From Oligoflexia bacterium (GTDB lineage Bacteria; Bdellovibrionota; UBA1018): a DNA stretch of 61,227 nucleotides. The stretch is from the NCBI GenBank assembly GCA_903881565.1, contig CAIRTR010000130.1:1-61227 (forward strand), given 5' to 3'. The notes under the pieces were generated by a model. It saw only the letters and a list, made by a program, of their open reading frames with translations. It made no database searches and was not told the origin of the DNA. The first letter of the stretch is position 1; each line of letters starts with the position of its first letter. A program made the translations under genes and the position numbers. Shown here in pieces: positions 17,711 to 45,865 of the stretch.

Positions 17711-18151
17711 TTAGAACTTCGCCGAGCCCGTCCCAATTGTTTTCCCATTGAGCCTGACTTCATAATGAATCTTGGCCGATTTTGCGATCATCGCACTCAC
17801 GCCACAATATTTCGTTTGAGAGAGCTCTACCGCTCGCATGAGTTTGTCTTCAGGCAAGCTAGGTGAGGTCACGTTATAAATGAGGTGAACCGTCTCAAAA
17901 ACCGAGGGTTCTCCCTTGGTCGTCTGCGCGTCGGTTTCAATGGAGATTCCCGTGAATTCGGCCCGCATCTTATTCAGTACATAAGCGACGTCCATCCCCG
18001 TGCATCCGGCGAGGCCAGCGAGCACAAGTTCCTTAGGCGTCGGTCCTAAGTCATCGCCCCCGGATTCGGGTTTGACATCCATCGGCACTTTATTGCCTCG
18101 AATATCAGCTTCAAAACTCATTTTATTCTGCCAAGTGAGTGTCAAGTTCAT
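17711..18151 (-). CDS. OsmC family protein (peroxiredoxin-like)
   Basis: 146 aa. GP(T/S)P.EL...L..C and a C-terminal TKYCGV-type Cys pair are characteristic of OsmC/Ohr. Confidence 0.85.
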   Translation of the reverse strand: MNLTLTWQNKMSFEADIRGNKVPMDVKPESGGDDLGPTPKELVLAGLAGCTGMDVAYVLNKMRAEFTGISIETDAQTTKGEPSVFETVHLIYNVTSPSLPEDKLMRAVELSQTKYCGVSAMIAKSAKIHYEVRLNGKTIGTGSAKF

Positions 18152-18228: not shown

Positions 18229-19578
18229 TTGAAAGTTAAAAGAGCGTCCGCAATTCTTGGCGTTGGACTTTTTGTTATCTCCCTTCCCTGCCTTGGCGAT
18301 ATCCCGAGTAGATGCCTCAAGAACAAAGTTCATGGCCTGCTGATGAATGAAAAAGCCACCGACAGCGGCCGCGAATATCATCTGGCCGAAGACTCGTACC
18401 CCTTTTCCAATCCTCATGGAAACTTCGTGGCTGAAGTGGGTAAAAATGTTGATTTCACTCTTGCGAGCAAACCCGGAATAAGAATGATTGGACAGGTTGA
18501 AAGAGTCTATTTGAACGACCGTGGCGAAATGGTATCCGTGCGCCTTCTTGTCCCTAAGGCTGCCGTAAACGGGGGCGGCTTAGAGTCTCGGATCTTTACT
18601 CCCGACCGCATCACCTCCTGGAGCACCACGGGCTTGGCGAAGAAACGTATGGATTTACTTTTAGCGGAGCGCCCCTCTCCTCACTCTGAAGCCACGGTTG
18701 TGATTCGCCAACCAAACGAGACTCAGTATCTTGAAAACGTCGCAAAAAAAGAGGCGAATGAAAATTTTTCAGCACGACTAAAGGCGGAGCGGGCCCAAAT
18801 TCCAGCCGAAATGGCGATAGATGCCAGGCAGTTGGATATGGCATGGAGAGATTCGCTTTCCGAGATTCAAAAGAAGGCGTTTCTTGAAAACCTGCGGATT
18901 CAAGACAAAAAGATGGCGAGATTTTTGGGGTTAAAGGACCCGGCACAAACAACTGCACTTCAAGCCGCATTTGCGGAAAAGCCGACGCCGGATTTTCTCG
19001 TGGCACCCTTTACAATTGAAACCCTCCCGGGAAAAACGCTCACAATGACAAGGCGTCAGGATTCACGTAATGGCTGGTGGTACGAGGCAACCTACAAGGA
19101 GATTAAACCCGGAAACAAATTCGCAGTCTTTCCGATCACTGAGCCCAAGAACCTGAACGCGCTTCTACCCGGACTTCTTGCTGTTTCTAAGAAAATGGGC
19201 GCTTCAGGTTTTCGTTTGGGAGCATCGCCCTCAAACATATTCCGATCCGACCCCATGGCTGTTTACTTTGAGAGTTTGGAAGCTGCACAAAACTACGCCC
19301 GCGCCATCTCGCACTACCTTGCGGCCGAAAAGAAGGGCTCATCAACGGTGCCAGAAGGTATGGGCACTGCCGCTCCTTCGGTTGGAATCGGGATTGAAAG
19401 CCTAACTCACAGCCCGGCAGATCATGCACCCCATCTGAAAATGGTTGAAGAAGCGAAGATTCGCGCGGAGCTAAAATGCAAAGGCGTCACTAAGTGCATC
19501 TGTGAGGAGTTTGCGCGCATCGGTCTCAATTCAGAAACTTTGCGACCACTTCCTGCCGGACAATTCAGTTGTCAGTGA
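18229..19578 (+). CDS. Secreted hypothetical protein (TTG start)
   Basis: GAGGGAGAG lies upstream of the TTG at 18229. Signal-like N-terminus. The C-terminal half (KFAVFPI...GFRLGASPSNIFRSDPMAVYFESLEAA) is faintly reminiscent of HopA1-type effector-family proteins, but that is not a secure call. Confidence 0.6.
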   Translation: MKVKRASAILGVGLFVISLPCLGDIPSRCLKNKVHGLLMNEKATDSGREYHLAEDSYPFSNPHGNFVAEVGKNVDFTLASKPGIRMIGQVERVYLNDRGEMVSVRLLVPKAAVNGGGLESRIFTPDRITSWSTTGLAKKRMDLLLAERPSPHSEATVVIRQPNETQYLENVAKKEANENFSARLKAERAQIPAEMAIDARQLDMAWRDSLSEIQKKAFLENLRIQDKKMARFLGLKDPAQTTALQAAFAEKPTPDFLVAPFTIETLPGKTLTMTRRQDSRNGWWYEATYKEIKPGNKFAVFPITEPKNLNALLPGLLAVSKKMGASGFRLGASPSNIFRSDPMAVYFESLEAAQNYARAISHYLAAEKKGSSTVPEGMGTAAPSVGIGIESLTHSPADHAPHLKMVEEAKIRAELKCKGVTKCICEEFARIGLNSETLRPLPAGQFSCQ

Positions 19579-19590
19579 TCTGATCCACGC

Positions 19591-20685
19591 TCAAAGATAA
19601 TAGTGTAGCTGCAGCGTTACGTACTCACTCCAATCGAGCGGAAACGAGGGCAACTTCTGGCGCTGCCAAAGCAAGTTGAATTCAAAATGGGGTCGAGGAA
19701 AAAACTGAGTCCCGAAACCATACGCCCCAAACTGTGTGCGTGAATCCAGAAAATCCTGGCGAGCCGCCTCCTGCTCCACATAGAACACAAGTCCCTTCAG
19801 GGGTTCGTAATTGAGCTGATTCAGAGTCGAAAACCCATTCTTCGAGCGATCGCCATCGGAAGATCTTTTCTGAAGCATGAGCTCCGACATCAAAACGAGT
19901 TTAGGCGTGAAACCCAAAACCGCAAACGGGCCACCGACTTGTCGACTAAACGCAGTTTTCGTCCCAGCGTAGTAACTTAGCCCGACTTGGAAACGATCCC
20001 AGAAGGCCATCGCAGGCCGAACAGAAATTCCCTTTTCGGCATCCAACGCCGAATCATCAGGACGCCCCAGGTTTCCCGTCAAAAAGGTCGAAAACTGCTC
20101 ACCCAACCACGCGGCCTCAACATTATAACTCTCACTGCCTTCGTCCCATCCCAAGTGACGCTGAATTGATGAGCGATGATCAGGAGCCATCAGTCCAAAT
20201 GCCTGTTGAAACCTCCCGGCCCGAAAAGAGAGTTCGTCAGTAGGGCGGTAGTTGATATAGTGCCTGCGCGATTGAGCTTCCTTATTATAAAGACCAACCA
20301 TCGCATCCGCGGTCCAAGGTCCCACCACTGCCGCCGCTTCAACGTCCGCCTGCATAAACAAGAATCGTCCGTTACGAACTTGGGGTGTATCTCGATAAAT
20401 CCCGACGGATCTGACATCACCACCCAGGCGTAACCATCCGGGAGCAGGAACTGCGCCGTAGAGAAAAGCCCCTTCGTTTTCGCGTCCAGCGCTGCTCATA
20501 AGCGTTGTTGAAAGTTGTCTCCCATAGGGGGTCAAAACACCACTGCCGCTGGGACTCACGTGACAAGCAATACAATTCACGTAACCGTGCCGGACGAATT
20601 CAGTAAAAGCATGCGCGTTCGGCGCGACCGCCGCCAACAAGACGACCAAAAAAAAGTGAAACTGAAACTTTTCTCGCAACAACAT
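19591..20685 (-). CDS. Predicted outer-membrane beta-barrel protein with N-terminal CxxCH haem-c motif (cassette 1)
   Basis: Signal peptide ends ...NAHA. The mature N-terminus is FTEFVRHGYVNCIACH (CIACH at 20560..20574). About 320 aa of strand-like sequence follow, ending LQLHYYL. Paralogue of 42049..43197. The start overlaps the YceI stop by 1 nt (TGATG). Confidence 0.7.
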   Translation of the reverse strand: MLLREKFQFHFFLVVLLAAVAPNAHAFTEFVRHGYVNCIACHVSPSGSGVLTPYGRQLSTTLMSSAGRENEGAFLYGAVPAPGWLRLGGDVRSVGIYRDTPQVRNGRFLFMQADVEAAAVVGPWTADAMVGLYNKEAQSRRHYINYRPTDELSFRAGRFQQAFGLMAPDHRSSIQRHLGWDEGSESYNVEAAWLGEQFSTFLTGNLGRPDDSALDAEKGISVRPAMAFWDRFQVGLSYYAGTKTAFSRQVGGPFAVLGFTPKLVLMSELMLQKRSSDGDRSKNGFSTLNQLNYEPLKGLVFYVEQEAARQDFLDSRTQFGAYGFGTQFFPRPHFEFNLLWQRQKLPSFPLDWSEYVTLQLHYYL

Positions 20686-21323
20686 CAGTGTGCTCCCGCC
20701 GCAGCGGCTACGGGCGCATCAAAATGCACGGTGACCGTGACGATCTCGGCAACAGTGATTCCGGCAAAGCTTGGAATCTCAATTTTAAAATCACTGAGCT
20801 TAAGCGGGAACTCTGCATCCACTACAAAGTTTTTTTCCTTCTCTACAAGCTCCGCGTCGCCTTCAACTCCATGCGTGACTCCATGAAAAGTCAAATCACC
20901 CTTAAAATGAACTTTGCCTTTAATTGGGGAAGAATCGGGAAGAGCAAGATCGGCGAACTTAAGTTCTGCTTGAGGAAACTTTGGAACTTCAAAATATTTT
21001 TCCTTCATGTGCTCTGTGCGCGTATCAATGCCTGTGTCGAGAGTAGCGAGATCAAATTTCACTGCACCTGCAGCCAAGGGTTTGCCACTTGCGCGACTGA
21101 TCGTCACCACGCCCTCGGGAGCAACTCCCTTGCCACGAATGCGTAGAGCACTGGGTCTCCCAATAGCGAGGAACTCGACTGAGCCACTGGTTTTCTGAAT
21201 CCTCACTTCAACCGGCGTGCCAGAAGGCACGCCTACGGGCGCGGCCACCTGGGCGGCAAAAGAACTCAAAGAAAAACCAAAAACCAAAACCGGGAAAATA
21301 GACTTAATCATTTTTTGCTCCAT
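20685..21323 (-). CDS. YceI-like family protein, secreted (cassette 1)
   Basis: Signal peptide present. GSVEFLAIG...FDLATLDTGIDTRTEHMKEKYFEVPKFPQAELKF...GDLTFHGVTH matches the YceI-like lipid/polyisoprenoid-binding domain pattern. Confidence 0.85.
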   Translation of the reverse strand: MEQKMIKSIFPVLVFGFSLSSFAAQVAAPVGVPSGTPVEVRIQKTSGSVEFLAIGRPSALRIRGKGVAPEGVVTISRASGKPLAAGAVKFDLATLDTGIDTRTEHMKEKYFEVPKFPQAELKFADLALPDSSPIKGKVHFKGDLTFHGVTHGVEGDAELVEKEKNFVVDAEFPLKLSDFKIEIPSFAGITVAEIVTVTVHFDAPVAAAAGAH

Positions 21324-21669
21324 TCTTGATCCAAAGGTAGATGGCTAAAATTTCATCATCGCTCAACATCGGTGCAAGCGGTGGCATCGATCCGTCGCTG
21401 ACGACTGTGTAGAGGTGACTTTTTTCAGGATCCCCGACCCGCACAGTCTCAAGAAGTGCGTGATGACTTGAGAAACTATCTTCGCCACCGCCTCCATGAC
21501 ATTGGGAACATTTGGGCAAGATGATGTGGTCTTGAATAGAAGTATAAGTCGCCTGCACGACAGACTCGGCACTAAGCTCTTGATTTTTGAGCGTATACCC
21601 ACAGCCACATCCGAAAACCGCTAGCCCTAAAACGAAACCAAATAACGGCAAGTATTTGAAATTTAGCAT
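21304..21669 (-). CDS. Small mono-haem c-type cytochrome domain lipoprotein (PSCyt1-like; cassette 1)
   Basis: The ATG at 21669 is preceded by AAGGTGG. Lipoprotein-like LAVFGCGCG. CSQCH, then VGDPEKSHLY...GSMPP...LSDDEILAIYLWIKNGA is the Planctomycete-type cytochrome C (PSCyt1) domain pattern. Confidence 0.75.
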   Translation of the reverse strand: MLNFKYLPLFGFVLGLAVFGCGCGYTLKNQELSAESVVQATYTSIQDHIILPKCSQCHGGGGEDSFSSHHALLETVRVGDPEKSHLYTVVSDGSMPPLAPMLSDDEILAIYLWIKNGAKND

Positions 21670-21688
21670 CTTTCCCACCTTAGCTCCC

Positions 21689-21705
21689 TGCCATTTTAAA
21701 TGGCA
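21689..21705. promoter_or_regulatory. Perfect 17-bp palindrome TGCCATTT-T-AAATGGCA in a divergent promoter region
   Basis: Read directly from the sequence. It lies 20 nt upstream of the cassette-1 cytochrome start and about 70 nt upstream of the divergent gene at 21777. Function unknown. Confidence 0.35.
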
Positions 21706-21776
21706 AGGGACTTTGAATATTTCTCACACCCAGGAGGTTGACAGCAGTAACTCACAGTGTTAAACGCACAGCAACA

Positions 21777-22847
21777 ATGAAGCACTTACACACCTTTATA
21801 AGCCCAAAGGCCATGGCCCTTGGATTTGCTCTCAGCGCTCTCCTCTTGGAATCATCGCGGACCTATGCGTTTGAAACTGACCAGCTCTCGGAGAGAAACG
21901 TAAATCCGTTAGACTCAAGTGAGCGCATCAACAGCTACGCCAATAAATTTTTGGAAGAGTGCCGCGTTAAAACTAACGAAGACATTCAAGATGCCTGGTT
22001 TGACTGGAGCGACGAAAAGATTTCTGACAAATTTCGCAAATGCGTTTTTAAAGCCAATCCTTTTAGTTTTCACTACTTCGGGGCACGTGTCGAAGTCTGG
22101 ATGAGAACCGATCTTGAAAATCACGGCTACGCTGTGGGCTCCGGGAGCGATAAGGAAAAAAACATTTACGGTGATTTTCGAAGCGCCTACCATTTTTTTC
22201 ACCCCTGGCATCCAAGCCCTCTTGTGTTTGAGTTCGCTCGGTTAGTATCGGGCGAGCTTTCCTCCCCGACTTTTGTTTCGAAAGAAATCCGCTTTGGCGC
22301 AGACAAGTTGAGCCATCTTTTTCGTTTGGGCTATAAATACTGGGATAAGAGTGATCGGGGACTTAACGACGCTGATGCGATTCACTTCGGCACAAAAACA
22401 GAGCTAGGGATGCTGGGGCGCCGAGGAATTGGCGTTTTCTCCTACGCCGATCTCTCTGCTAACTACTCGGGCTACCTATTCTACAAAAACATGATCGCGT
22501 CCGTCGAAGACCCCGCTTGGCTGACACACACGTTTCACTACGGAATCGTTTGGAACATTGGAAAGAACCTTCCCCAAATTGAACTTATTCGTGCGTTCAA
22601 CCTTGCGGATTACGCCACCCAGGACTGGGATGAGTACCTGAACCCATCGGTGTACGTTCCTTCGCTTCAACGATCCGTAACCCAGCACTTACAAGAGCAT
22701 CGCCTCGAAATCTGCTCACAATTCAAAGATTGGAAATCTTCGAATGCCACGCCTTTGAAGCCGCTCAGAGAGAAGCCTCAGTACGTGGATCTTGCGATTG
22801 CGCCGCCGCAGGTTGATCCCTTTAAGGTAGAAGCGCTCTGCGAATAA
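21777..22847 (+). CDS. Secreted hypothetical protein
   Basis: MKHLHTFISPKAMALGFALSALLLESSRTYA is a signal peptide. 356-aa ORF, no family recognised. Confidence 0.65.
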   Translation: MKHLHTFISPKAMALGFALSALLLESSRTYAFETDQLSERNVNPLDSSERINSYANKFLEECRVKTNEDIQDAWFDWSDEKISDKFRKCVFKANPFSFHYFGARVEVWMRTDLENHGYAVGSGSDKEKNIYGDFRSAYHFFHPWHPSPLVFEFARLVSGELSSPTFVSKEIRFGADKLSHLFRLGYKYWDKSDRGLNDADAIHFGTKTELGMLGRRGIGVFSYADLSANYSGYLFYKNMIASVEDPAWLTHTFHYGIVWNIGKNLPQIELIRAFNLADYATQDWDEYLNPSVYVPSLQRSVTQHLQEHRLEICSQFKDWKSSNATPLKPLREKPQYVDLAIAPPQVDPFKVEALCE

Positions 22848-22851
22848 GCGC

Positions 22852-24195
22852 ATGACAAAAGTGCCGCCTCGCAAAGTTAAGAAACTAAAAAAAATCCGCG
22901 AAGGCGCGCTTTCCAGAAGCTGGGCTCTCGCTAAGGTTTCGATGGCCGCGGGAGCCAAGGCGGCGTCTCATGCCGTGGGCACAGTGTTCTCCACGGAGGC
23001 TGATCAGCCCGATCGCCTCAAAGCGCTGTTGATGTCTCAGGTTGATTTACTGACCCGCGAATTAGGGCAGCTCAAAGGCAGTGCGATGAAGGTCGGGCAG
23101 ATGCTTTCGATGTACGGAGAGAAGTTTCTTCCACCCGAGGCAAATGCCTTACTCAAGTCTCTCCAGAGCCAGTCTCCTCCGCTCGAATGGGAAGCCATTG
23201 AAAAAGTATTGCGACGACAGCTCAGCATTAAGCAGCTTGCGCTTCTTGACGTTGACCCTGAGTCCATGGCAAGCGCTTCGCTTGGGCAAGTGCACCGCGC
23301 GCGGGTCAAGTCGAGCGGCAGATGGCTTGCCATGAAAATCCAATATCCGGGAGTGGATCAAGCGATCGAAGGCGATTTGAAGGCGTTGCGCTCGTTGTTG
23401 ACGTTGGCTAAGTTGATTCCGCGAAATATTGCGACCGATGAACTGTTTAAAGAAGTTCGGCAGATGCTTCATCAGGAGGTGGATTATTCTCGTGAGCTTG
23501 AACTCACTCAGGAGTTCCGTGCGGCGCTGAAGGATGACCCCCGCTTCATTATTCCAGAGCCGTTTCCGGAATTTTCGAGCTCAAGAGTTTTGACGACAAG
23601 CTTTGAGGAAGGAATCGCTGTCGATAGCCCGGAGATATTGGCACTCCCCCAGGAACGACGAAATGCCATAGGAGCTCTCGCACTTGATCTGTATTTTAAA
23701 GAGATCTTCACCCTCAAAATGATGCAGACGGATCCGCACTTCGGAAATTACCGAATCCGCTTGGGCACGAACGGTGAGCCTGATCGGATGGTGCTCTTTG
23801 ATTTTGGGGCCGTTAGAAAATTTCCACAGTCATTTTTAAAACCCTATTATGCGATGATTAAGGCCGCAGCTAACAAGGATAAAGAGGGCCTCCTGAAGGC
23901 GTCACGTCAGCTTGGATTTTTGGAAGAGGGAGATCCCGTAGAGCTTGATGAATATTTTGCTGAACTTGTTTTCTTGATCACCGAGCCTTTTAACGGCGAG
24001 TATGATTGGGGCGGTAGTGACTTACCTCAGCGCGTGGCGACCAAGGCTGGGCAGATGGCTTTGAAATTCAAACTCCGGGCTCCACCGCGAGAGATTTTGT
24101 TTTTGGATCGAAAAATGGGAGGAGTTTTTATTTTACTTTCGGTCCTTCAAGCACGTTTTGATGCGAGACCAGTGTTGGAGCCGTATCTGGTGTGA
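22852..24195 (+). CDS. ABC1/AarF/UbiB-family atypical kinase
   Basis: KVGQMLS, ASLGQVHRARV...AMKIQYPGV and TDPHFGNY (HPGN-like) motifs of the ABC1 kinase family. Confidence 0.9.
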   Translation: MTKVPPRKVKKLKKIREGALSRSWALAKVSMAAGAKAASHAVGTVFSTEADQPDRLKALLMSQVDLLTRELGQLKGSAMKVGQMLSMYGEKFLPPEANALLKSLQSQSPPLEWEAIEKVLRRQLSIKQLALLDVDPESMASASLGQVHRARVKSSGRWLAMKIQYPGVDQAIEGDLKALRSLLTLAKLIPRNIATDELFKEVRQMLHQEVDYSRELELTQEFRAALKDDPRFIIPEPFPEFSSSRVLTTSFEEGIAVDSPEILALPQERRNAIGALALDLYFKEIFTLKMMQTDPHFGNYRIRLGTNGEPDRMVLFDFGAVRKFPQSFLKPYYAMIKAAANKDKEGLLKASRQLGFLEEGDPVELDEYFAELVFLITEPFNGEYDWGGSDLPQRVATKAGQMALKFKLRAPPREILFLDRKMGGVFILLSVLQARFDARPVLEPYLV

Positions 24196-24570: not shown

Positions 24571-25110
24571 ATGCTATCCATACACCAGGCACAGATTTGC
24601 GACATTCCAGCACTATACAATCATTTAAAACGGCACGACCTCGAGTCCGGAACCAGTGGCGATCTCATTTTCGCGCCCTTTGAAGAACCGTGGAGTCGCC
24701 TTGAAGATGATCTGCTCAAAGAGAAAAAAGAGAAATGGCAGAAACATATCACTGAGGTTGGCTGGGAGCGCTGTTGGGTTGCTTCAGACGAGCTGGGCAT
24801 TTATGGTGAAATCAAATTAGTCCAGCAGCCGCCACTCCGCACTTCGCTTCATCGTGCCACCGTGATGATGGGAATTGAGCGCCCTTATCGTGCACTGGGT
24901 TTGGGCTCACAACTCATGAAGGCGGCTTTGGAATGGGCGAAAGAGCAGCCCTCTCTCGAATGGCTAGAGTTGGGTGTTTTCGCACATAATGAGCCAGCGA
25001 TTCGGCTATACGAGAAATTCTGTTTCCAAGAGGTAGGACGTACTGTTGATCTTTTTCGTGTCCACGGTAACAAAATCGACGACATTCACATGACCCTGCA
25101 GCTTCCTTGA
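24571..25110 (+). CDS. GNAT family N-acetyltransferase
   Basis: Acetyl-CoA-binding motif A region RALGLGSQLMKAALEWAKEQ, followed by NEPAIRLYEKFCFQEVG. Confidence 0.85.
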   Translation: MLSIHQAQICDIPALYNHLKRHDLESGTSGDLIFAPFEEPWSRLEDDLLKEKKEKWQKHITEVGWERCWVASDELGIYGEIKLVQQPPLRTSLHRATVMMGIERPYRALGLGSQLMKAALEWAKEQPSLEWLELGVFAHNEPAIRLYEKFCFQEVGRTVDLFRVHGNKIDDIHMTLQLP

Positions 25111-38927: not shown

Positions 38928-40247
38928 GTGCGCTATACTAAACCTATGATTACCCAATCTTGGCTCCATTCATCTGATTGGGCTAAATCGGATCCGCATT
39001 TAAAGAAATATCACGCACAATCCTTTAAGCGAGCTAGCCTCCCACTCGATCCCGCACCGGGAATTCATACTTTGCTTGGTCCCAGACGAATCGGAAAATC
39101 AACTCAGTTTAAACTTTGGATCCAGGAACTCCTCACTTCCCGGCGTATTGCAGGCGAGAAAATCGTCTACTTGGACGCCGAGCGTTTCGAAAACTGGAAA
39201 GAACTCTATCAGACAATTGCGCCTTTTGAAAAATGCGTTCTCTTTATCGATGAAGTAACGGCACCAAAAGACTGGGAGCGCGCCCTAAAGATTTTTGCCG
39301 ACGAAGGAAAAATAGAAACCACCTGCATTTGGATAACGGGTTCGAATGCATTTGCGTTGAAAAACTCAGGCGAGAGGCTTCCAGGACGCAGAGGAAAGGG
39401 GCTCATACTGAGAGACGCAGAACTGCTCCCTCTCACATTCAAAGAGTTTCATCACGTCATGACCGTCAATACCCCACCGTCATCTGCTACTCAATCCTTT
39501 GAGAAGTTTTTAAGATGGGGTGGCTATCCGGCCTCCGTTTCTGAATGCCTGGACCACGAATCATGCTCGACCGATTGGCTTCAAGAATTGTTGGATGTCG
39601 TCTTGGGTGAAGCGAGTCGCATGCATCGCTCCCCTCGCCTCACGGCAGCCTTAAGTGAACGAATTTGGATTAATCTCACACAAAGAACGAGCTATCACGC
39701 GATTTCAAAAATGATTGATGCAGGTTCACACCCCATTATTCGTCAATATATCGAAATTCTAGAAGGCTGTTACACCTTGATCACAGCCGAGCGATTCAAT
39801 CCAAAGACCAAAGGCGGAGTCCTAAAAAAGGAAAAAAAATTCTACTTCTTGGACCCCCTTGTGATGCACGCCCTTGTTTCTTATGCCCAACAAGGGCGCC
39901 TGGACCCGGATTGGCTTAAAACCCAGATTGAAGAGCCGAGCAAGAAGGGGTTACTCATTGAGAACGTCGTAGCCTCAGAGCTTCGAAAAAAGAATTTTGT
40001 GTTTTATTACGATGAGGCCTATGGAGGAGAAATTGATTTTGTCCTCCCCTTTCAACCCGAACTCCCTGCCATCGAAGTAAAGCTCAGCATGCCCTCACTG
40101 AGCGAAATTCGGCCAATGACGGCATACCCCAAGGGGGAAGTCTGGGTCTATCGTTGGATGAATCCAACCTCGAAGGACGGCGAGAGAATAACTAAGATTG
40201 GCGAAACAAAGGTGTGCTCACTTGTGGATCGTTTGTTGGAGTTATAG
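38928..40247 (+). CDS. AAA-type ATP-binding protein with DUF4143-like C-terminal domain
   Basis: LLGPRRIGKST Walker A, LFIDEV Walker B, and FLRWGGYP plus C-terminal EIDFVL are typical of the AAA_14/DUF4143 family. GTG start. Confidence 0.8.
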   Translation: MRYTKPMITQSWLHSSDWAKSDPHLKKYHAQSFKRASLPLDPAPGIHTLLGPRRIGKSTQFKLWIQELLTSRRIAGEKIVYLDAERFENWKELYQTIAPFEKCVLFIDEVTAPKDWERALKIFADEGKIETTCIWITGSNAFALKNSGERLPGRRGKGLILRDAELLPLTFKEFHHVMTVNTPPSSATQSFEKFLRWGGYPASVSECLDHESCSTDWLQELLDVVLGEASRMHRSPRLTAALSERIWINLTQRTSYHAISKMIDAGSHPIIRQYIEILEGCYTLITAERFNPKTKGGVLKKEKKFYFLDPLVMHALVSYAQQGRLDPDWLKTQIEEPSKKGLLIENVVASELRKKNFVFYYDEAYGGEIDFVLPFQPELPAIEVKLSMPSLSEIRPMTAYPKGEVWVYRWMNPTSKDGERITKIGETKVCSLVDRLLEL

Positions 40248-40380: not shown

Positions 40381-40396
40381 TGGCACGTGCGTTGCT
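40381..40396 (+). promoter_or_regulatory. Sigma54 (-24/-12) promoter TGGCACG-N4-TTGCT
   Basis: Read directly: TGGCACGTGCGTTGCT, with GG at 40382-83 and GC at 40394-95 (GG-N10-GC spacing). It lies 67 nt upstream of the ATG at 40463, and GGAG lies 7 nt before the ATG. Confidence 0.6.
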
Positions 40397-40462: not shown

Positions 40463-41437
40463 ATGAAAAAATACGGAACTATTTATCTCGAAATTATTAC
40501 CCTCACCCTCATTGCCCTTGCGCTTCCCACTGCCTGTGGCCAGCCCTTAGGCGGAAGTTCTGGAACAAATCCCACAGGCGCCGATGCAAGTACGGTCAAT
40601 TTCGGCCTACTTGCTCAAAACGTATTACAATCCAAGTGTACCACTTGCCACTCAGGGACTGGAGCTTCAGCAGGAGTTGATCTATCATCCTACGAGAGCA
40701 CCATGAAAACCGGGTCAGTCGTCGCGTATTACCCGGAGAAAAGCAGTCTCTATACCTCGACAAACTCAGGCTCGATGCAGCGAGGAGGCAGTCCGCTTTC
40801 GAAAACCGAAATCCAATACATTTACAATTGGATCAAGGCCGGAGCGCCAAAAGATGCCCTCGCTTCAAACGCATCTCCAGAAGGCACGACCTCAACGAGC
40901 TCCCCTCAGACCGCTCCCAGTGTAGGTTCTGAACCTACAGGGCTTCCCGTTTGTAAAGTCGACTCAAATTCGAAAACCAAACCCCGCGATAGAAATAGAG
41001 GGAAGGGCGAGGACAGCGACAATGACGACGAGGACAAGAATGATTTAGTCGAAACTGGAGTCACTCCAAACTGTGTACCTTCACCACTCCCGGCTCCAAG
41101 CCCGACAGCATTACCAAGCCCCACCCCAGTCCCAACACCAACACCAACGCCGACTCCTACACCAACGGCCGCCGCGACCTTCACCCAAGTGTTCAGCACC
41201 ATCGTGAAACCAAAATGCGCCACCTGTCACACGGGTTCCGGCTCTCCAATGGGTTATGATTTATCTTCTTACGCCCAAGTCATGGCAACGGGGAGTGTCG
41301 TAGCCGGCAGTGCGAGCGGAAGCCGTCTCTACACCTCGACGTCATCGGGCTCAATGCCTCCTTCAGGCACAAAACTCTCGGCCACTGAACTCAAGCTGAT
41401 TTCGGATTGGATCAACAGTGGCGCAGCCAATAACTAA
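40463..41437 (+). CDS. Lipoprotein-like di-domain c-type cytochrome (two PSCyt1-like domains joined by a low-complexity linker; cassette 2)
   Basis: Signal peptide plus ...LPTAC. CTTCH (40637..40651) and CATCH (41216..41230) are each followed by G-SVV..G....S-LYTST-SGSM...G-LS..E......WI..GA. The linker spans aa 133-238. Confidence 0.8.
   Translation: MKKYGTIYLEIITLTLIALALPTACGQPLGGSSGTNPTGADASTVNFGLLAQNVLQSKCTTCHSGTGASAGVDLSSYESTMKTGSVVAYYPEKSSLYTSTNSGSMQRGGSPLSKTEIQYIYNWIKAGAPKDALASNASPEGTTSTSSPQTAPSVGSEPTGLPVCKVDSNSKTKPRDRNRGKGEDSDNDDEDKNDLVETGVTPNCVPSPLPAPSPTALPSPTPVPTPTPTPTPTPTAAATFTQVFSTIVKPKCATCHTGSGSPMGYDLSSYAQVMATGSVVAGSASGSRLYTSTSSGSMPPSGTKLSATELKLISDWINSGAANN
41123..41167 (+). repeat. 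Thr-Pro codon microrepeat (TPVPTPTPTPTPTPT) within the cytochrome linker
   Basis: ACC CCA GTC CCA ACA CCA ACA CCA ACG CCG ACT CCT ACA CCA ACG, read directly. Coding low-complexity region. Confidence 0.8.
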
Positions 41438-41465
41438 ACCAAACAACAAAATGGAGAAATCAATA

Positions 41466-42086
41466 ATGCAGAATCAGAAAATAGATTGGATCACGAAACT
41501 CACCTTCACTTTATGGATAGCGGGAAGCTTCACCTCGAGCCTCGCTGCCCTTCCTCAGAAACAAAGTTGGAATCTCGATCCCACCAAAGACGAGGGAAAA
41601 GTTGAGTTTGTCGCAATCGGCAAACCCAGCCTGCTTAAGATTCACGGCGTTGGCGCAGCCCCTAAAGGAAACTTCGCCATCCAAGGATCTTCTGTCTCGG
41701 GCCGCGTCGAATTCGCCTTGCAAACCCTCGATTCAGGAATCGAAATGCGCGACAAGCACATGAAGGAGAAGTACTTGGAACTTGAAAAGTTTCCGGTCGC
41801 GACGCTTGAAATCAAAAACCTCATTTTGCCGCGGCCCGCACCTGAGGGAGATTTCGCAATGGAAGGGGTCGCTTTTGAAGGTCCTTTGACACTGCATGGA
41901 TTAACAAAACCTGTAAAAGGAACAGCCAAGATTGCCCGCGCGGGCGGCCAAATGTTAGTTGAAGCGGAGTTCGGTTTAAAAATTACGGACTTCGCAATAC
42001 CCATCCCGAACTTTGCCGGCATTGCGATAGCCGATGAGGTGAAAATTCATGTGGAATCAAAAGCAAGCAAGGTGGCTTCAAAATGA
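41466..42086 (+). CDS. YceI-like family protein, secreted (cassette 2)
   Basis: GGAGA lies 7 nt upstream of the ATG at 41466. GKVEFVAIG...LQTLDSGIEMRDKHMKEKYLELEKFPVATLEI...GPLTLHGLTKPV. Paralogue of 20685..21323. Confidence 0.85.
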   Translation: MQNQKIDWITKLTFTLWIAGSFTSSLAALPQKQSWNLDPTKDEGKVEFVAIGKPSLLKIHGVGAAPKGNFAIQGSSVSGRVEFALQTLDSGIEMRDKHMKEKYLELEKFPVATLEIKNLILPRPAPEGDFAMEGVAFEGPLTLHGLTKPVKGTAKIARAGGQMLVEAEFGLKITDFAIPIPNFAGIAIADEVKIHVESKASKVASK

Positions 42087-43197
42087 ACTGACCTCCACCC
42101 TAGTCATCGCCCTAACCATCACTCTCGGAGTGGCCACCCATCCCTCCGAGAGTTTTGCTTTTCCCGAAATGGTCAGACATGGCTATCAAAACTGCACGGC
42201 TTGCCACATCAGCACGAATGGCGGAGGCATCCTCACTCAATATGGCCGAGCTTTGTCTCGCGAAGTGATGAGCAGCTGGGGACAAGAGGGAGAAGAAAAT
42301 TTCCTCTATGGCGCAATTCCCCCTGTTAACTGGCTGGCACTTGGCGGTGATGTACAAACACTAAACATCACGCAACAAGACCGAGCTCCTCAGAGCCGTT
42401 TTATTCTGATGCACGCGGATCTTGAAGCTGCAGTGAACGTCGGCCAATTCACAGCAACCGGAACGCTGGGTTTGCTTGATAGCGCCATATTTCCAGAAGG
42501 CAATCATCTTATTAGCAGGCGCCACTATCTACGCTATCATCCAACAGACGAGCTCTTCTTTCGCGCCGGTCGCTTTAACCAAGCTTTTGGAATCAATACG
42601 GCCGAGCACGCGATGGTCACTAAACGAAGCTTAGGCTGGGACGAGGGATCGGAGTCCTATAATCTTGAAGGCTCGTGGATCGGTGAAAAGGTGAACGTTT
42701 ACGTCACCGGCAACTTTGGCAGACTCGACTCACCAAAGTTGAATCGTGACGTCGGAGTGACTGGAAGTTTAGCCTACGCGGCCGCAGAGAAAATAAAAAT
42801 AGGGAGCAGCTACTACTATGGAACTAACGATTTTGCTCGTCGAAATATTTTGGGTGGCTGGGGGATTGTTGGATTTACAAAAAAGATCGTTCTCCTGGGG
42901 GAATACGATCTTCAACGCTACTTCGCCGCCACAGCCATAGATCCGCAATGGGGATCAGTCGATTATCTCAAACTCGACGGCGAAGTCTTGCGTGGATTGC
43001 ATGTCTTTGCCACCCAGGAATACGCACAACTGAACTTCCTTGATAGCAATACCCAAACTTATGTTTATGGCATCGGAACCCAATTCTTTCCGCGGCCCCA
43101 TTTTGATTTTCAATTGGTTTTTCAAACGCGAGACAACGTCGGGACCGGTCTAGGGTTCAAGAACTGGGTGTTCTTCCTGCTTCATTATTATCTTTAA
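42049..43197 (+). CDS. Predicted outer-membrane beta-barrel protein with N-terminal CxxCH haem-c motif (cassette 2)
   Basis: GAGGTGA lies 6 nt upstream of the ATG. The signal peptide ends ...ESFA and the mature N-terminus is FPEMVRHGYQNCTACH (CTACH at 42193..42207). Strand-like sequence runs to the C-terminal FFLLHYYL. About 60% identical by eye to 19591..20685 over the first 65 or so mature residues. Confidence 0.75.
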   Translation: MWNQKQARWLQNELTSTLVIALTITLGVATHPSESFAFPEMVRHGYQNCTACHISTNGGGILTQYGRALSREVMSSWGQEGEENFLYGAIPPVNWLALGGDVQTLNITQQDRAPQSRFILMHADLEAAVNVGQFTATGTLGLLDSAIFPEGNHLISRRHYLRYHPTDELFFRAGRFNQAFGINTAEHAMVTKRSLGWDEGSESYNLEGSWIGEKVNVYVTGNFGRLDSPKLNRDVGVTGSLAYAAAEKIKIGSSYYYGTNDFARRNILGGWGIVGFTKKIVLLGEYDLQRYFAATAIDPQWGSVDYLKLDGEVLRGLHVFATQEYAQLNFLDSNTQTYVYGIGTQFFPRPHFDFQLVFQTRDNVGTGLGFKNWVFFLLHYYL

Positions 43198-43206
43198 GCC
43201 TAACGG

Positions 43207-44889
43207 CTAGTGACAGCGATCGCACCCACCGATACTACCCACACCATGTTGATAATATCCTTTTTTCCATGGCTTGGAGTTCTGGTGGCAAAAGAGACAA
43301 TCTCCCGCTTTCGCGTGCGAAAAATGATGTTCGCCCAATTTAGTAGGACGCTCTACCTCATGGCATTCCCCACAGTTACGTTTGGGAGCCGGATTGTGCC
43401 CGAAAACCGCGCCCGACCAATTTGGGGCGGCCTTCTTATGGCATCCGATGCAGTCTCCCGATCCAAAAGTCTCATGATCAAATCGCTTGACGACGCCGAT
43501 CGGAGCTCCCGTGTTATGACAAGGAAAGCAAGACGCTTCGAGCGTGCCGCCGGCTGAATGCTGAAACTTCCAATTCGAAACGCCGGAGTTCTTGGACACA
43601 TGACAAAGATTACAATCTTTGTCGCCAAAATGGCTCAAAACGGTAGGCTTAGGTGCTGAAGGATTAACGGTTGGGAAAATAGTTTTGTCTGGCCGTTTCT
43701 GCTCATGACAATTCGAACACGTTTTCAAAGTCGAATTTTGAGCAGGATGAGGACTCACGGCTTTCCAACTTTTCCCCACTTCCAAATGGCATCCCAGACA
43801 ATCCACGCTGCCATAATGCGAAGATACGGGCCGGCGCGCCTCATGGCAGCTTGCACACTCCGAGAGGCCCCTGGGATGAACATAAACCGTGCGACTCCAA
43901 GGCTGATTAAATTGATGACAGCTCAGGCAATCCCCAGCCTTCTGATGCGAAAATCCATGTGTGACTGCAGGTGGGCGATTCGCTTCGTGGCATGGCAAAC
44001 AAGATTGCACCGGTGCCGGATCATGTTTGAACACGCCCCCACTCCACACCTTGCTGTCCTGGTGACACTTGAAACAATCTCCGGCTCCGAAAACCTGATG
44101 AGTAAAGCGCCCGATCATCGCCTCAGGGCGTTTATCCGCATGACAAGGCAAACAGGATTTCAGGGAATTCTGATTTGCCGAGTGGGTGTAAACGAATTTG
44201 CCACCTTCAACCGTCCGAGACTCGTGACAAAGAATGCAATCATCCGCACCAAAGTGCCCGGGCTGCTTCTGCGTCACTTGCGGTCTATCGCGCTCATGAC
44301 AGCCGTTACAATTTACGGGGACTGGATTGTTCTGGGGATGAGGTGAACTTGTCGACTGCGCCCAACTCCGAGTTGAGTCAAGGTGACAGCTTGCGCAGTC
44401 CTGCCCGGCAAAATGATCCGGCGATTTTCTGCGAGACTCATGGCACGGCAAGCAGGTCGCTATCGAGCGAAGTTCAAAATTCTTATGCGTAAAACGAAAT
44501 CCGACATCCTGATTTTGACCCGCTTCATGGCAAGAAAAGCAATCTTGCTTACCGAAATGTTCGGGCTTCGGCCGATTGACCTCGTGACATAAAACGCAGG
44601 AACTCGGCAATGGCTTATGAGTGAAGTTCTGTAAGGCTTTCCAACTTGGCCCGATTCTGTGGCAAATCGCGCAGTCCGCGCTTTGCCCATGGGGAACACC
44701 CGCAACCGGCGCGGGGCGAAGGGTTTCGTGGCAACTTGAGCAAGACTGTTCCGCCACGATCGCATGAGAAAACTTCGCTACTTTTGATGCTTCATTTGTG
44801 ACCGCAGGCTGTTCTAAAAAGTTACACCCCTGAGAAAATATCCCAGACAAAAAGAGCGCGACTAATGCGGCTGAAACCCAGATTTTCAT
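43207..44889 (-). CDS. Multihaem c-type cytochrome with 21 CxxCH motifs, lipoprotein-like signal
   Basis: I counted 21 CxxCH motifs in 560 aa. Ten tandem dihaem units follow the pattern CxxCHExxRP...HFGxxDCxxCH (Paired_CXXCH-like). The last motif, CDRCH, is the C-terminus. The N-terminus is MKIWVSAALVALFLSGIFSQGC. Confidence 0.9.
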   Translation of the reverse strand: MKIWVSAALVALFLSGIFSQGCNFLEQPAVTNEASKVAKFSHAIVAEQSCSSCHETLRPAPVAGVPHGQSADCAICHRIGPSWKALQNFTHKPLPSSCVLCHEVNRPKPEHFGKQDCFSCHEAGQNQDVGFRFTHKNFELRSIATCLPCHESRRKSPDHFAGQDCASCHLDSTRSWAQSTSSPHPQNNPVPVNCNGCHERDRPQVTQKQPGHFGADDCILCHESRTVEGGKFVYTHSANQNSLKSCLPCHADKRPEAMIGRFTHQVFGAGDCFKCHQDSKVWSGGVFKHDPAPVQSCLPCHEANRPPAVTHGFSHQKAGDCLSCHQFNQPWSRTVYVHPRGLSECASCHEARRPVSSHYGSVDCLGCHLEVGKSWKAVSPHPAQNSTLKTCSNCHEQKRPDKTIFPTVNPSAPKPTVLSHFGDKDCNLCHVSKNSGVSNWKFQHSAGGTLEASCFPCHNTGAPIGVVKRFDHETFGSGDCIGCHKKAAPNWSGAVFGHNPAPKRNCGECHEVERPTKLGEHHFSHAKAGDCLFCHQNSKPWKKGYYQHGVGSIGGCDRCH

Positions 44890-45737
44890 TTAATCTCTTG
44901 AAAGCGCAGCGCACTCAAACCTTTGAGATCCACTTGGCTGGTGTAATAATAGAGCTTAATGAGACCATAGGTATCGGCGCAAAGGGCTTCATCCCAGTTT
45001 TTGATGCACTGATCTTCTTGCTCAGGAGTCGCATACTCAGGAGAGTCAAAAGCGCGTCTCACACTGAAACGCTCCTCGTTTGAGCAATCCTTTTCGGTTT
45101 TTGCATCGACCGTGTTTCCGTTGATCAAAAGAAAATCATCATCCTTACAGGCTCCCTCAGGAACCAGCAAATTGAACGCCGTTTCAAATCGCGCCATTCC
45201 CAATTCGACTCCGATAGCCGAATCCCCAGCGCCCAGATCTAAAATGTGAATTCCGTTATGAGACAAGAAACGAGCAGCGGCGCCGTAAATAAAGCCAATG
45301 GTGGCATTGATTCCTGTAAAATGTCCTGAAAAATCCCCGACCGTTTTGCCGTTAAGATGAGTGACGCTCATACTAAAATTACGAGTTTCTGTAAGAAAGC
45401 CGACACCGGTTCCAAACCCCGGGAGTCCGCGCATGTTAAAAGCGATTCGGTAATTCACGCCCACTTTCGGGCTTTCGCATTCCAAAAAAAACTGAAATTG
45501 ATCAAAGGTGACGCCGCCAATTACGGCGGCACCACTGGATTGAATTCCTAAGCTGCCATGATCATAACTCCGGATTTTGCATGATTCGTAGGGAAGTATC
45601 CCTGGATGAGCTTTGCCCCACAGTGAACCCTTGATGGGAAGATACTCTTGAGGCTCGTCAGCAAAGACGTGAAAAGAGGTAAGACTCAGGAACAAAACTG
45701 ATAGTAACTGTACAAATTCAGTCGAACGGTATTTCAT
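44886..45737 (-). CDS. Secreted hypothetical protein, translationally coupled to the multihaem cytochrome
   Basis: Its stop overlaps the cytochrome ATG (4-nt overlap at 44886..44889). MKYRSTEFVQLLSVLFLSLTSFHVFA is a signal peptide when started at 45737 (alternatives are 45761, or the GTG at 45863). Gly-rich beta-like core, Cys-containing C-terminal region. Confidence 0.6.
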   Translation of the reverse strand: MKYRSTEFVQLLSVLFLSLTSFHVFADEPQEYLPIKGSLWGKAHPGILPYESCKIRSYDHGSLGIQSSGAAVIGGVTFDQFQFFLECESPKVGVNYRIAFNMRGLPGFGTGVGFLTETRNFSMSVTHLNGKTVGDFSGHFTGINATIGFIYGAAARFLSHNGIHILDLGAGDSAIGVELGMARFETAFNLLVPEGACKDDDFLLINGNTVDAKTEKDCSNEERFSVRRAFDSPEYATPEQEDQCIKNWDEALCADTYGLIKLYYYTSQVDLKGLSALRFQEIK

Positions 45738-45865
45738 ACAGCGAGAGGCATACCCCTTCATGGCTGTGCGCGTCAAGCCAATTAAACCCTCCTGGATGAA
45801 TCTGCACCCGTTGTTCAAATTTTGCTTTTCTGTTCTAATGACCGAGGAACAGATGAAAAACACGG

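Follow-up and report, generated by a model that had tools for sequence, protein, structure and literature searches.

The window analysed here, 61,227 nucleotides (nt) of contig CAIRTR010000130.1 from an Oligoflexia bacterium, carries a cassette of three overlapping genes that encode a c-type cytochrome lipoprotein, a YceI-family lipocalin and a predicted outer-membrane beta-barrel with a single CxxCH haem motif near its N-terminus. The gene neighbourhoods of its relatives indicate that the cassette is a conserved three-gene operon across the phylum Bdellovibrionota. Profile comparison makes it probable that the barrel family is a distant homologue of Cyc2, the two having a common ancestor. By analogy with Cyc2 there is, in our judgement, about an even chance that the cassette is an outer-membrane conduit that oxidizes a reduced metal cation, Fe(II) or Cu(I).

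The cassette is present twice in the window, and we refer to the two sets of genes as copy A and copy B, and to their products as cytochrome, YceI and barrel A or B:

Copy A gene 1, 21304..21669, minus strand: mono-haem class I c-type cytochrome lipoprotein (from the open reading frame (ORF), Pfam and the lipobox)
Copy A gene 2, 20685..21323, minus strand: secreted YceI-family lipocalin (Pfam YceI PF04264, 70.6 bits, E=2.4e-19)
Copy A gene 3, 19591..20685, minus strand: predicted outer-membrane fused monohaem cytochrome-porin, 364 amino acids (aa) (from AlphaFold2, Foldseek and hhalign)
Copy B gene 1, 40463..41437, plus strand: di-haem cytochrome c lipoprotein, 324 aa (from the ORF and Pfam)
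Copy B gene 2, 41418..42086, plus strand: YceI-family lipocalin, 222 aa (Pfam YceI, 67.2 bits)
Copy B gene 3, 42049..43197, plus strand: predicted fused monohaem cytochrome-porin, 382 aa (paralogue of 19591-20685)

A first annotation made from the letters of the window (the sequence-only reading) had placed the three copy A genes at these minus-strand positions in overlapping frames, and the ORF list shows all three as it described them. Cytochrome A is 121 aa long from ATG 21669, which has an AGGTGG Shine-Dalgarno sequence 5 nt upstream and is the start used by public gene calls; the same frame stays open to a GTG at 21678 (21304..21678). CSQCH is the haem motif of the protein, which further carries a GSMP methionine motif and, behind the signal helix, a lipobox-type cysteine. 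YceI A measures 212 aa from ATG 21323 and 208 aa from ATG 21311, the start in public gene calls. The translational coupling that had been claimed, through overlaps of 20 nt and 1 nt, is seen as well, the first overlap being 8 nt (ATGATTAA) if YceI A starts at ATG 21311; the second, between YceI A and barrel A, is the 1 nt of TGATG. The signal peptide of barrel A ends in AHA, with F as the first mature residue; the mature N-terminus is FTEFVRHGYVNCIACH and the C-terminus LQLHYYL. Independent public assemblies call the same copy A genes, of 121, 208 and 364 aa.

The sequence-only reading had also reported a second, inverted cassette of the same gene order about 19 kb away. A tblastn search of the window with the three copy A proteins confirmed it, returning one other copy only, 40463..43197 on the plus strand, 18.8 kb from copy A and divergently oriented. 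Barrels A and B are 45% identical over 362 aa (E=8e-105); the alignment spans the whole protein, and the similarity runs end to end rather than being confined to low-complexity or signal regions. The count made by eye for the first mature residues of the two barrels, 41 of 66, proved exact on recount, and the YceI pair, taken from the start to be homologous, aligns formally at 40% identity over 213 aa (E=2e-44). The signal peptide of barrel B ends in SFA, again followed by F. Both YceI scores lie above the PF04264 gathering cut-off of 23.7 bits. Cytochrome B consists of two class I domains joined by an acidic, Pro/Thr-rich linker of ~110 aa, and cytochrome A aligns with these domains at 41% identity over 78 aa and 31% over 124 aa. 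The description of the cytochromes as PSCyt1-like holds for copy B, which matches PSCyt1 PF07635 (35.5 bits) as well as Cytochrome_CBB3 PF13442 (37.6 bits), but not for copy A, whose sole Pfam match is Cytochrome_CBB3 at 27.0 bits, exactly the cut-off of 27. By score the nearest named family for both is NF047812 (LIC11213 family lipoprotein), which has a cut-off of 100 bits; at 39.2 bits for cytochrome A and 86.5 bits for cytochrome B (two domains), neither qualifies as a member.

A scan of one genome per species yielded 159 relatives of the barrel, and the neighbourhoods of the best 80 loci were analysed together with the window. These 80 loci are essentially all from Bdellovibrionota (Bdellovibrionales, Oligoflexia, Bacteriovoracaceae and Pseudobdellovibrionaceae), plus one probable misbin. 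ORFs were called and searched iteratively, which gave 82 barrel ORFs, a count that includes the two window copies and one split gene (at locus L057). YceI lies directly upstream on the same strand of 66 of the 82 barrels, mostly with a 4-nt ATGA overlap, and the full order of cytochrome, YceI and barrel is found for 46. When all neighbours within 5 kb were clustered, the barrel was present at 80 loci, YceI at 72 and the cytochrome at 58, the next family reaching only 13. Because only these three families recur among the neighbours, we regard the three genes as a functional unit, in agreement with the sequence-only reading, and as an operon that appears to be conserved across the phylum. The cassette cytochrome has one or two haem domains, occasionally three or four, and the mono-haem form of copy A is common elsewhere. 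An L-x-[SAG]-C lipobox is present in the cassette-linked cytochromes of nearly all loci, which argues that these cytochromes are lipoproteins.

At 13 loci (among them L003, 716-1405, and L044, 4071-4673) we observed a gene for a secreted protein of ~200 aa, fam208, that has no Pfam or NCBIfam match. In most of these loci it immediately precedes the cytochrome c gene and shares its strand, and it may be an optional fourth component of the cassette; the window has none. At L057 (5914-7051, on a 2.98-Mb contig) the barrel is split into overlapping frames of 109 aa, with the CxxCH, and 303 aa, reflecting either a sequencing frameshift or a genuine pseudogene.

The barrel family is large, compact and unnamed. 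Barrels A and B have no family matches in Pfam or NCBIfam; phosphate-selective porin O/P (PF07396) matches neither of them and occurs as a precomputed match in one distant relative (P0116). A profile search of 1.84 billion representatives returned 2301 clusters (50% identity) at E<=0.001, of which 722 have E<=1e-30. Against PDB sequences the family profile gave only insignificant matches, to cytochrome c6 and OmpX, and a tblastn search of 72,556 plasmids with barrel A, aimed at Cyc2 homologues on Burkholderia or Ralstonia replicons, found nothing relevant. Exactly one CxxCH is present in every full-length member examined (245/245), at a median position of 33 and usually with no further cysteine, and the median length of the family is ~368 aa. 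The motif belongs to a family signature directly behind the signal peptide, A[FY]PE[ML][VI]RHGYxNCxxCHVSPxGGGxLTxYGRxLSxE. M111, H170 and H333, likewise invariant, would be candidates for a sixth haem ligand. The AlphaFold2 model of barrel A, built from a 45-sequence alignment (predicted local distance difference test (pLDDT) 85.7, predicted template modelling score (pTM) 0.83), has a haem segment of ~60 residues followed by a beta-barrel of 16 strands. The top matches of this model in a Foldseek search of the PDB are 16-strand porins, with OprP (2o4v) 3rd and OprO (4rjx) 10th. In some members of the family (P0319, P0334 and P0378) a low-complexity insertion of 30-40 residues separates the haem segment from the first barrel strand, which fits a two-module build with a variable linker.

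Cyc2 proteins likewise have a signal peptide, a single CXXCH and a 16-strand porin modelled on OprO/OprP; they show Fe(II) oxidase activity with a haem potential near +200 mV, and the characterized fused monohaem cytochrome-porins are oxidases or electron-uptake proteins (PMC8406198). The architecture of Sec signal, CxxCH and 16-strand porin is the same in Acidithiobacillus ferrooxidans Cyc2, Mariprofundus Cyc2PV-1 and Leptospirillum Cyt572, and in Acidithiobacillus the cyc2-cyc1 pair, co-transcription with a periplasmic c-type cytochrome, parallels the cassette. Both window barrels have a signal peptide and one N-terminal CXXCH, and the model of barrel A has the 16-strand barrel like that of OprO/OprP. 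For a direct comparison we retrieved Cyc2PV-1 (P0121, 436 aa) and 119 Zetaproteobacterial relatives via the peptides of Table S1 of PMC8406198, and aligned 36 of them. In hhalign the family matches Zetaproteobacterial Cyc2 with a probability of 80.2% and E=1.4e-5 over 84 columns, which reach from the end of the signal peptide through the haem segment and the first strand. Cyc2 AIPAFARQTGAACLSCHFQTF--PALNAFGRAF is aligned with AFPEMVRHGYVNCTSCHVSPsGGGvLTxYGRxL of the family: the positions before the CxxCH that coincide are -12 (A), -10 (P), -8 (hydrophobic) and -6 (R), and L-[TN]-x-[YF]-G-R follows. Against the family hidden Markov model (HMM), Cyc2 proteins score at most 22 bits, above shuffled controls, and other CxxCH ORFs of the same loci at most 6.7 bits; with the HMM of Cyc2 cluster 1, barrel B is the highest-scoring member at 15.3 bits. 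Modelled by the same method, Cyc2PV-1 has helices around the CxxCH, its first strand at residue 84 (compared with 85) and 16 strands, and Foldseek matches it to the same porins as the barrel A model.

The barrel could also be an ordinary cation porin whose CxxCH is structural or serves haem storage or uptake, with chance co-transcription with two periplasmic proteins and no electron transfer. In the Foldseek search general diffusion porins reach a similar structural score, which is consistent with this. However, C, C and H are invariant in 245/245 members, inside a 36-residue conserved signature, the linkage to a c-type cytochrome lipoprotein is constant, and the haem segment is closer to Cyc2 than to other CxxCH proteins. 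We therefore consider a porin of this kind very unlikely.

A second line of evidence on the substrate comes from gene neighbours. Copper-homeostasis genes lie near the cassette at 13 of the 80 related loci, in several clades, including those nearest to both window copies. These are CsoR-type repressors with a Cu(I)-type C-H-C fingerprint (9 loci), P1B ATPases with a CPC motif (4 loci; one ATPase is above the NCBIfam copper-ATPase cut-off), multicopper oxidases (6 loci) and an ankyrin-cupredoxin protein (6 loci). At L049 (2386-9374) the order is CsoR, fam208, cytochrome, cupredoxin, YceI, barrel and CopA, all co-directional and in one apparent operon; the cassette stands amid copper genes also at L036, L064, L072, L004, L025, L009, L010 and L005, in some cases co-directionally. 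The CsoR-CopA and CueO/PcoA systems thus adjoin the cassette or share apparent operons with it at these 13 loci, whereas the cassette proteins themselves, unlike those of copper homeostasis systems, have no Pfam-recognised copper-binding domain. Genomes hold few copper genes, and co-location at this frequency is probably well above chance. The P-type ATPase next to the cassette at L002, which had clustered with copper pumps, is of type II and without the CPC motif, and it was taken out of the copper count. Our literature search found no paper joining YceI with CsoR and copper, and nothing relevant on YceI and copper resistance.

From the parts of the cassette, their order, translational coupling and conservation, the fold class of the barrel and its invariant single CxxCH, we infer a path that electrons could take. 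A small reduced metal cation would enter the pore, Fe(II) by analogy with Cyc2 or Cu(I) as the neighbouring genes suggest, where a haem lodged within or beneath the barrel would oxidize it. The membrane-tethered cytochrome c would receive the electron and hand it to a terminal oxidase, relatives having those of the cbb3 and bd types, with YceI possibly acting as a lipid-cofactor carrier or a second relay in the periplasm. A bolder form of this proposal, which we think unlikely as a whole, is an unrecognized outer-membrane metal oxidase in which the haem-porin oxidizes Cu(I), or Cu(I) together with Fe(II), during passage of the ion through the outer membrane, a YceI-bound isoprenoid quinone and the tethered cytochrome c carry the electrons across the periplasm, and the two copies are specialized for different metals or oxygen regimes. 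A Cu(I) oxidase role in the periplasm or outer membrane would parallel that of CueO: if the bolder form is true, the cassette would be a cytochrome-based counterpart of CueO, and would provide the first soluble protein-bound quinone that serves as a periplasmic electron shuttle.

Several observations weigh against a Cyc2-like metal oxidase. Cyc2 is recognized by AXPXFAR[Q/K][T/Y] before the CXXCH, PXL 4 residues after it and a length of at least 365 aa, most members having at least 400 (PMC8406198). The family has [ML][VI]RHG where Cyc2 has FAR[Q/K][T/Y], in the same register and with A, P and R kept; copy A reads AFTEFVRHG and copy B AFPEMVRHG. In place of PXL, the family has P 3 and L 9 residues past the histidine (CH-V-S-P-x-G-G-G-x-L), and copy B is without the P (CHISTNGGGIL). 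Barrel A, at 364 aa, falls just below this minimum and barrel B, at 382 aa, is close to it; both are shorter than almost all Cyc2 proteins. With the strict motif and the length both failing, we do not count the family as Cyc2 as defined. The HMM-to-sequence scores, at most 22 bits, are far under database-wide significance. The similarity to Cyc2 is confined to ~80 N-terminal residues: in a relaxed local hhalign the barrel part is colinear with that of Cyc2 at zero added score, and a global hhalign of the family against Cyc2 gives no score. The cassette barrels are also 60-70 residues shorter than Cyc2, with short loops. The partner set differs too, as YceI and an adjacent cytochrome are both missing from the Cyc2PV-1 locus, and the YceI/cytochrome partnership thus appears specific to the barrel family. 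Unlike Cyc2, the cassette barrel is essentially restricted to Bdellovibrionota and is linked to a YceI lipocalin, and a subset of its loci are in copper clusters rather than in iron-oxidation contexts; our literature search found no paper joining YceI and Cyc2. Within 5 kb of copy A and of copy B there are no iron or copper genes, and copper genes are present at only 16% of the related loci. Finally, the family is common in predatory, heterotrophic lineages, in which one would not expect lithotrophic iron oxidation.

Microbial iron oxidation is inferred from genomes and metagenomes mainly with Cyc2 as the genetic marker. Since motif and length filters both fail on the barrel family, its 2301 clusters would be invisible to Cyc2 filters. 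If the cassette is a metal-oxidizing conduit related to Cyc2, the fused cytochrome-porin design would be more widely spread and not bound to lithotrophic iron oxidizers, and the copper-cluster association raises Cu(I) as a possible substrate. The pairing of YceI with a lipoprotein cytochrome would make a defined, testable three-protein module that spans the periplasm. Predatory and magnetotactic Bdellovibrionota would possess, in one or two copies per genome, an envelope redox function that is so far unstudied.

The relationship of copies A and B was traced through their database relatives. Barrel B (P0066) is only the 66th among the relatives of barrel A, to which proteins of other organisms are 46-82% identical, compared with 45% for barrel B; a recent tandem-type duplication is ruled out by this rank. 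In a neighbour-joining tree, which has long branches and no support values, A falls with L001, L002 and L006 and B with L020, L028 and L027. Copies A and B each fall among genes of other genomes; the duplication therefore appears to be ancient, and the copies belong to different clades. At least 5 other genomes among the 80 loci also have two barrel copies. The closest public locus to copy A is L001, of 'Bdellovibrionota bacterium FG-2', and the order cytochrome, YceI, barrel, OsmC and porin is common to both; amino-acid identity between the window and FG-2 is 66% for the cytochrome, 73% for YceI, 80-81% for the barrel and 92% for OsmC. A ferruginous spring is the source of FG-2, a magnetotactic member of the Bdellovibrionota (class UBA1018) with oxidases of the cbb3 and bd types; habitat and oxidases would suit a metal-oxidizing conduit. 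FG-2 carries, as does FG-1, MtrAB-like operons that are attributed to iron reduction, and Cyc2 is nowhere mentioned in the paper that describes it (PMC13200544).

The surroundings of the two copies contain the following features:

40381..40396, plus strand: perfect sigma54-type -24/-12 consensus TGGCACGTGCGTTGCT, the sole zero-mismatch match in the window
43207..44889, minus strand: periplasmic multihaem cytochrome, 560 aa, 21 CxxCH (matches to Cytochrome_C7, Cytochrom_CIII and Paired_CXXCH_1)
17711..18151, minus strand: OsmC-family peroxiredoxin-like gene, downstream of copy A (Pfam OsmC, 74.3 bits)
21689..21705, no strand assigned: palindrome TGCCATTT-A-AAATGGCA, 17 bp, candidate operator (read from the sequence)

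The sigma54 consensus sits 67 nt upstream of cytochrome B. A scan of the intergenic region of copy A, 21679-21777, for sigma54 and sigma70 consensus found none, and two one-mismatch sigma54 matches within the YceI A coding region are the chance-level expectation. The 21-CxxCH cytochrome, which has an NCBIfam DmsE-family decahaem match below threshold, converges on barrel B. Promoter and multihaem neighbour are both found only at copy B, as the sequence-only reading had noted in describing copy A as lacking them. Copy A and ORF 21738-22847 are divergent, and the palindrome sits in the short intergenic region between them, 20-36 nt before the cytochrome A start codon; it was not found upstream of the FG-2 orthologue. 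The linkage of OsmC to the cassette is kept in FG-2, and OsmC is also nearby in L002. The sigma54 promoter, di-haem cytochrome and 21-haem neighbour of copy B, set against OsmC at copy A, therefore point to different conditions of use, and differential regulation of the two copies, which the sequence-only reading had suggested alongside sub-functionalisation, is plausible. The 21-CxxCH cytochrome is preceded by a gene for a 325-aa secreted protein with no family match (44886-45863, minus strand), the two forming an apparent two-gene operon, 43207-45863; homologues of these two proteins were found at none of the 80 related loci.

With its one-domain cytochrome, no recognisable promoter consensus and no multihaem neighbour, copy A might be taken for a decaying duplicate of a 'real' cassette at 40-43 kb. 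But its three frames are intact and its alignments run end to end. Against the FG-2 orthologues, which are 66-81% identical, YceI has a ratio of nonsynonymous to synonymous substitution (dN/dS) of 0.12 and the cytochrome one of 0.20, and frameshifts are absent; for the barrel dN is 0.14 and dS is saturated. The mono-haem cytochrome is moreover common in other genomes, and the genes are called in independent public assemblies. These ratios indicate that copy A is under purifying selection; the possibility that it is a pseudogene, raised with the sequence-only reading, therefore fails, ruled out by dN/dS and the full-length alignments, and we regard decay as next to impossible.

The surroundings of copy B bear on the direction of electron flow. 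The same parts could deliver electrons outward to an extracellular or pore-bound acceptor, for example to reduce Fe(III) or Cu(II) in assimilation or anaerobic respiration. This would suit the 21-haem periplasmic cytochrome next to copy B and its sigma54 promoter, the long linker of the di-haem cytochrome B, which could span the periplasm, and the MtrAB-like operons attributed to iron reduction in the relatives FG-1 and FG-2 (PMC13200544). Yet the characterized fused monohaem cytochrome-porins are oxidases or electron-uptake proteins (PMC8406198), the multicopper oxidases and CopA near the cassette speak for a detoxification in which the metal is oxidized and exported, not reduced, and the multihaem neighbour is absent at copy A and at all 80 related loci; we think outward transfer improbable. 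As in MtrAB, MtoAB and PioAB, an outer-membrane barrel and a c-type haem would move electrons across the outer membrane. In those systems, however, a 26-strand barrel sheathes a separate decahaem protein, whereas the cassette barrel has 16 strands and one fused haem motif, and thus falls outside the MtrAB type.

The YceI partner suggests envelope redox chemistry with a lipid cofactor. YceI proteins are eight-stranded lipocalins whose solved members hold ubiquinone-8 or other polyisoprenoids (PMC9113575, PMC8981238), and the closest solved structures to YceI A are BcnB (5ixg) and HP1286 (3hpe). YceI is known to be coupled or fused to cytochrome b561, as in LcoA-BcnA, a conserved detoxification system (PMC9113575). 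In LcoA-BcnA and E. coli yceJ-yceI, as in the cassette, a secreted YceI lipocalin is co-transcribed with a cytochrome and envelope redox chemistry is implicated; the cassette, in contrast, has c-type partners in the periplasm and outer membrane and an outer-membrane barrel, and no inner-membrane dihaem b561. We found no cytochrome b561 among the scanned ORFs around either copy or among the recurrent neighbour families of the 80 loci. Cellvibrio Cbp2D and Cbp2E likewise combine a YceI-like X158 quinone-binding module with a mono-haem c-type cytochrome for extracytoplasmic electron transfer; each of the two, however, is one secreted protein of several domains, has carbohydrate-binding modules and supplies lytic polysaccharide monooxygenases, whereas the cassette consists of separate proteins and a porin.

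These parallels allow an account in which the cassette defends the envelope against lipid peroxidation: a YceI-bound quinol or isoprenoid would scavenge lipid peroxyl radicals as BcnA does, c-type cytochromes would replace the b561 LcoA in its re-reduction, and the barrel would be the place where the lipocalin or its hydrophobic ligand docks at, or leaves through, the outer membrane. BcnB, the solved protein nearest to YceI A and a lipocalin of Burkholderia, would fit this role, as would the conserved detoxification system of a YceI lipocalin and a cytochrome partner (PMC9113575). So would the OsmC gene after copy A, with its linkage kept in FG-2 and OsmC nearby in L002, and the CsoR neighbours, which suggest a copper signal, copper being a driver of oxidative damage. 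The account leaves unexplained, though, why an invariant haem motif with a Cyc2-like signature should be fused to a porin; no cytochrome b561 is encoded among the ORFs of at least 90 aa scanned near either copy, and the OsmC linkage is seen at few loci only. On balance we find a peroxidation defence rather unlikely.

Further genes lie around the two copies. Between barrel A and OsmC there is an ORF of 449 aa (18229-19578, plus strand) without a Pfam or NCBIfam match, which is also called in public assemblies. In FG-2 (L001) barrel and OsmC are just 9 bp apart, and the ORF is therefore an insertion in the window lineage or a deletion in FG-2. An ABC1/UbiB-family atypical kinase gene (22852-24195, plus strand) lies ~1.2 kb from copy A on the opposite strand; the family is tied to isoprenoid quinone biosynthesis and is possibly relevant to a quinone-binding YceI, and its linkage to the cassette is not kept in FG-2. 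Immediately upstream of the sigma54 promoter of copy B is an AAA_14/DUF4143 ATPase gene (38928-40247, plus strand). The rest of the window is ordinary chromosome, with genes for FtsK, poly(A)/CCA polymerase, formate-tetrahydrofolate ligase, Tex, Kup and subtilases. The segment 24001-26600 has a G+C content of 0.445, compared with ~0.50 elsewhere in the window, and holds a GNAT acetyltransferase gene (24571-25110) and small ORFs.

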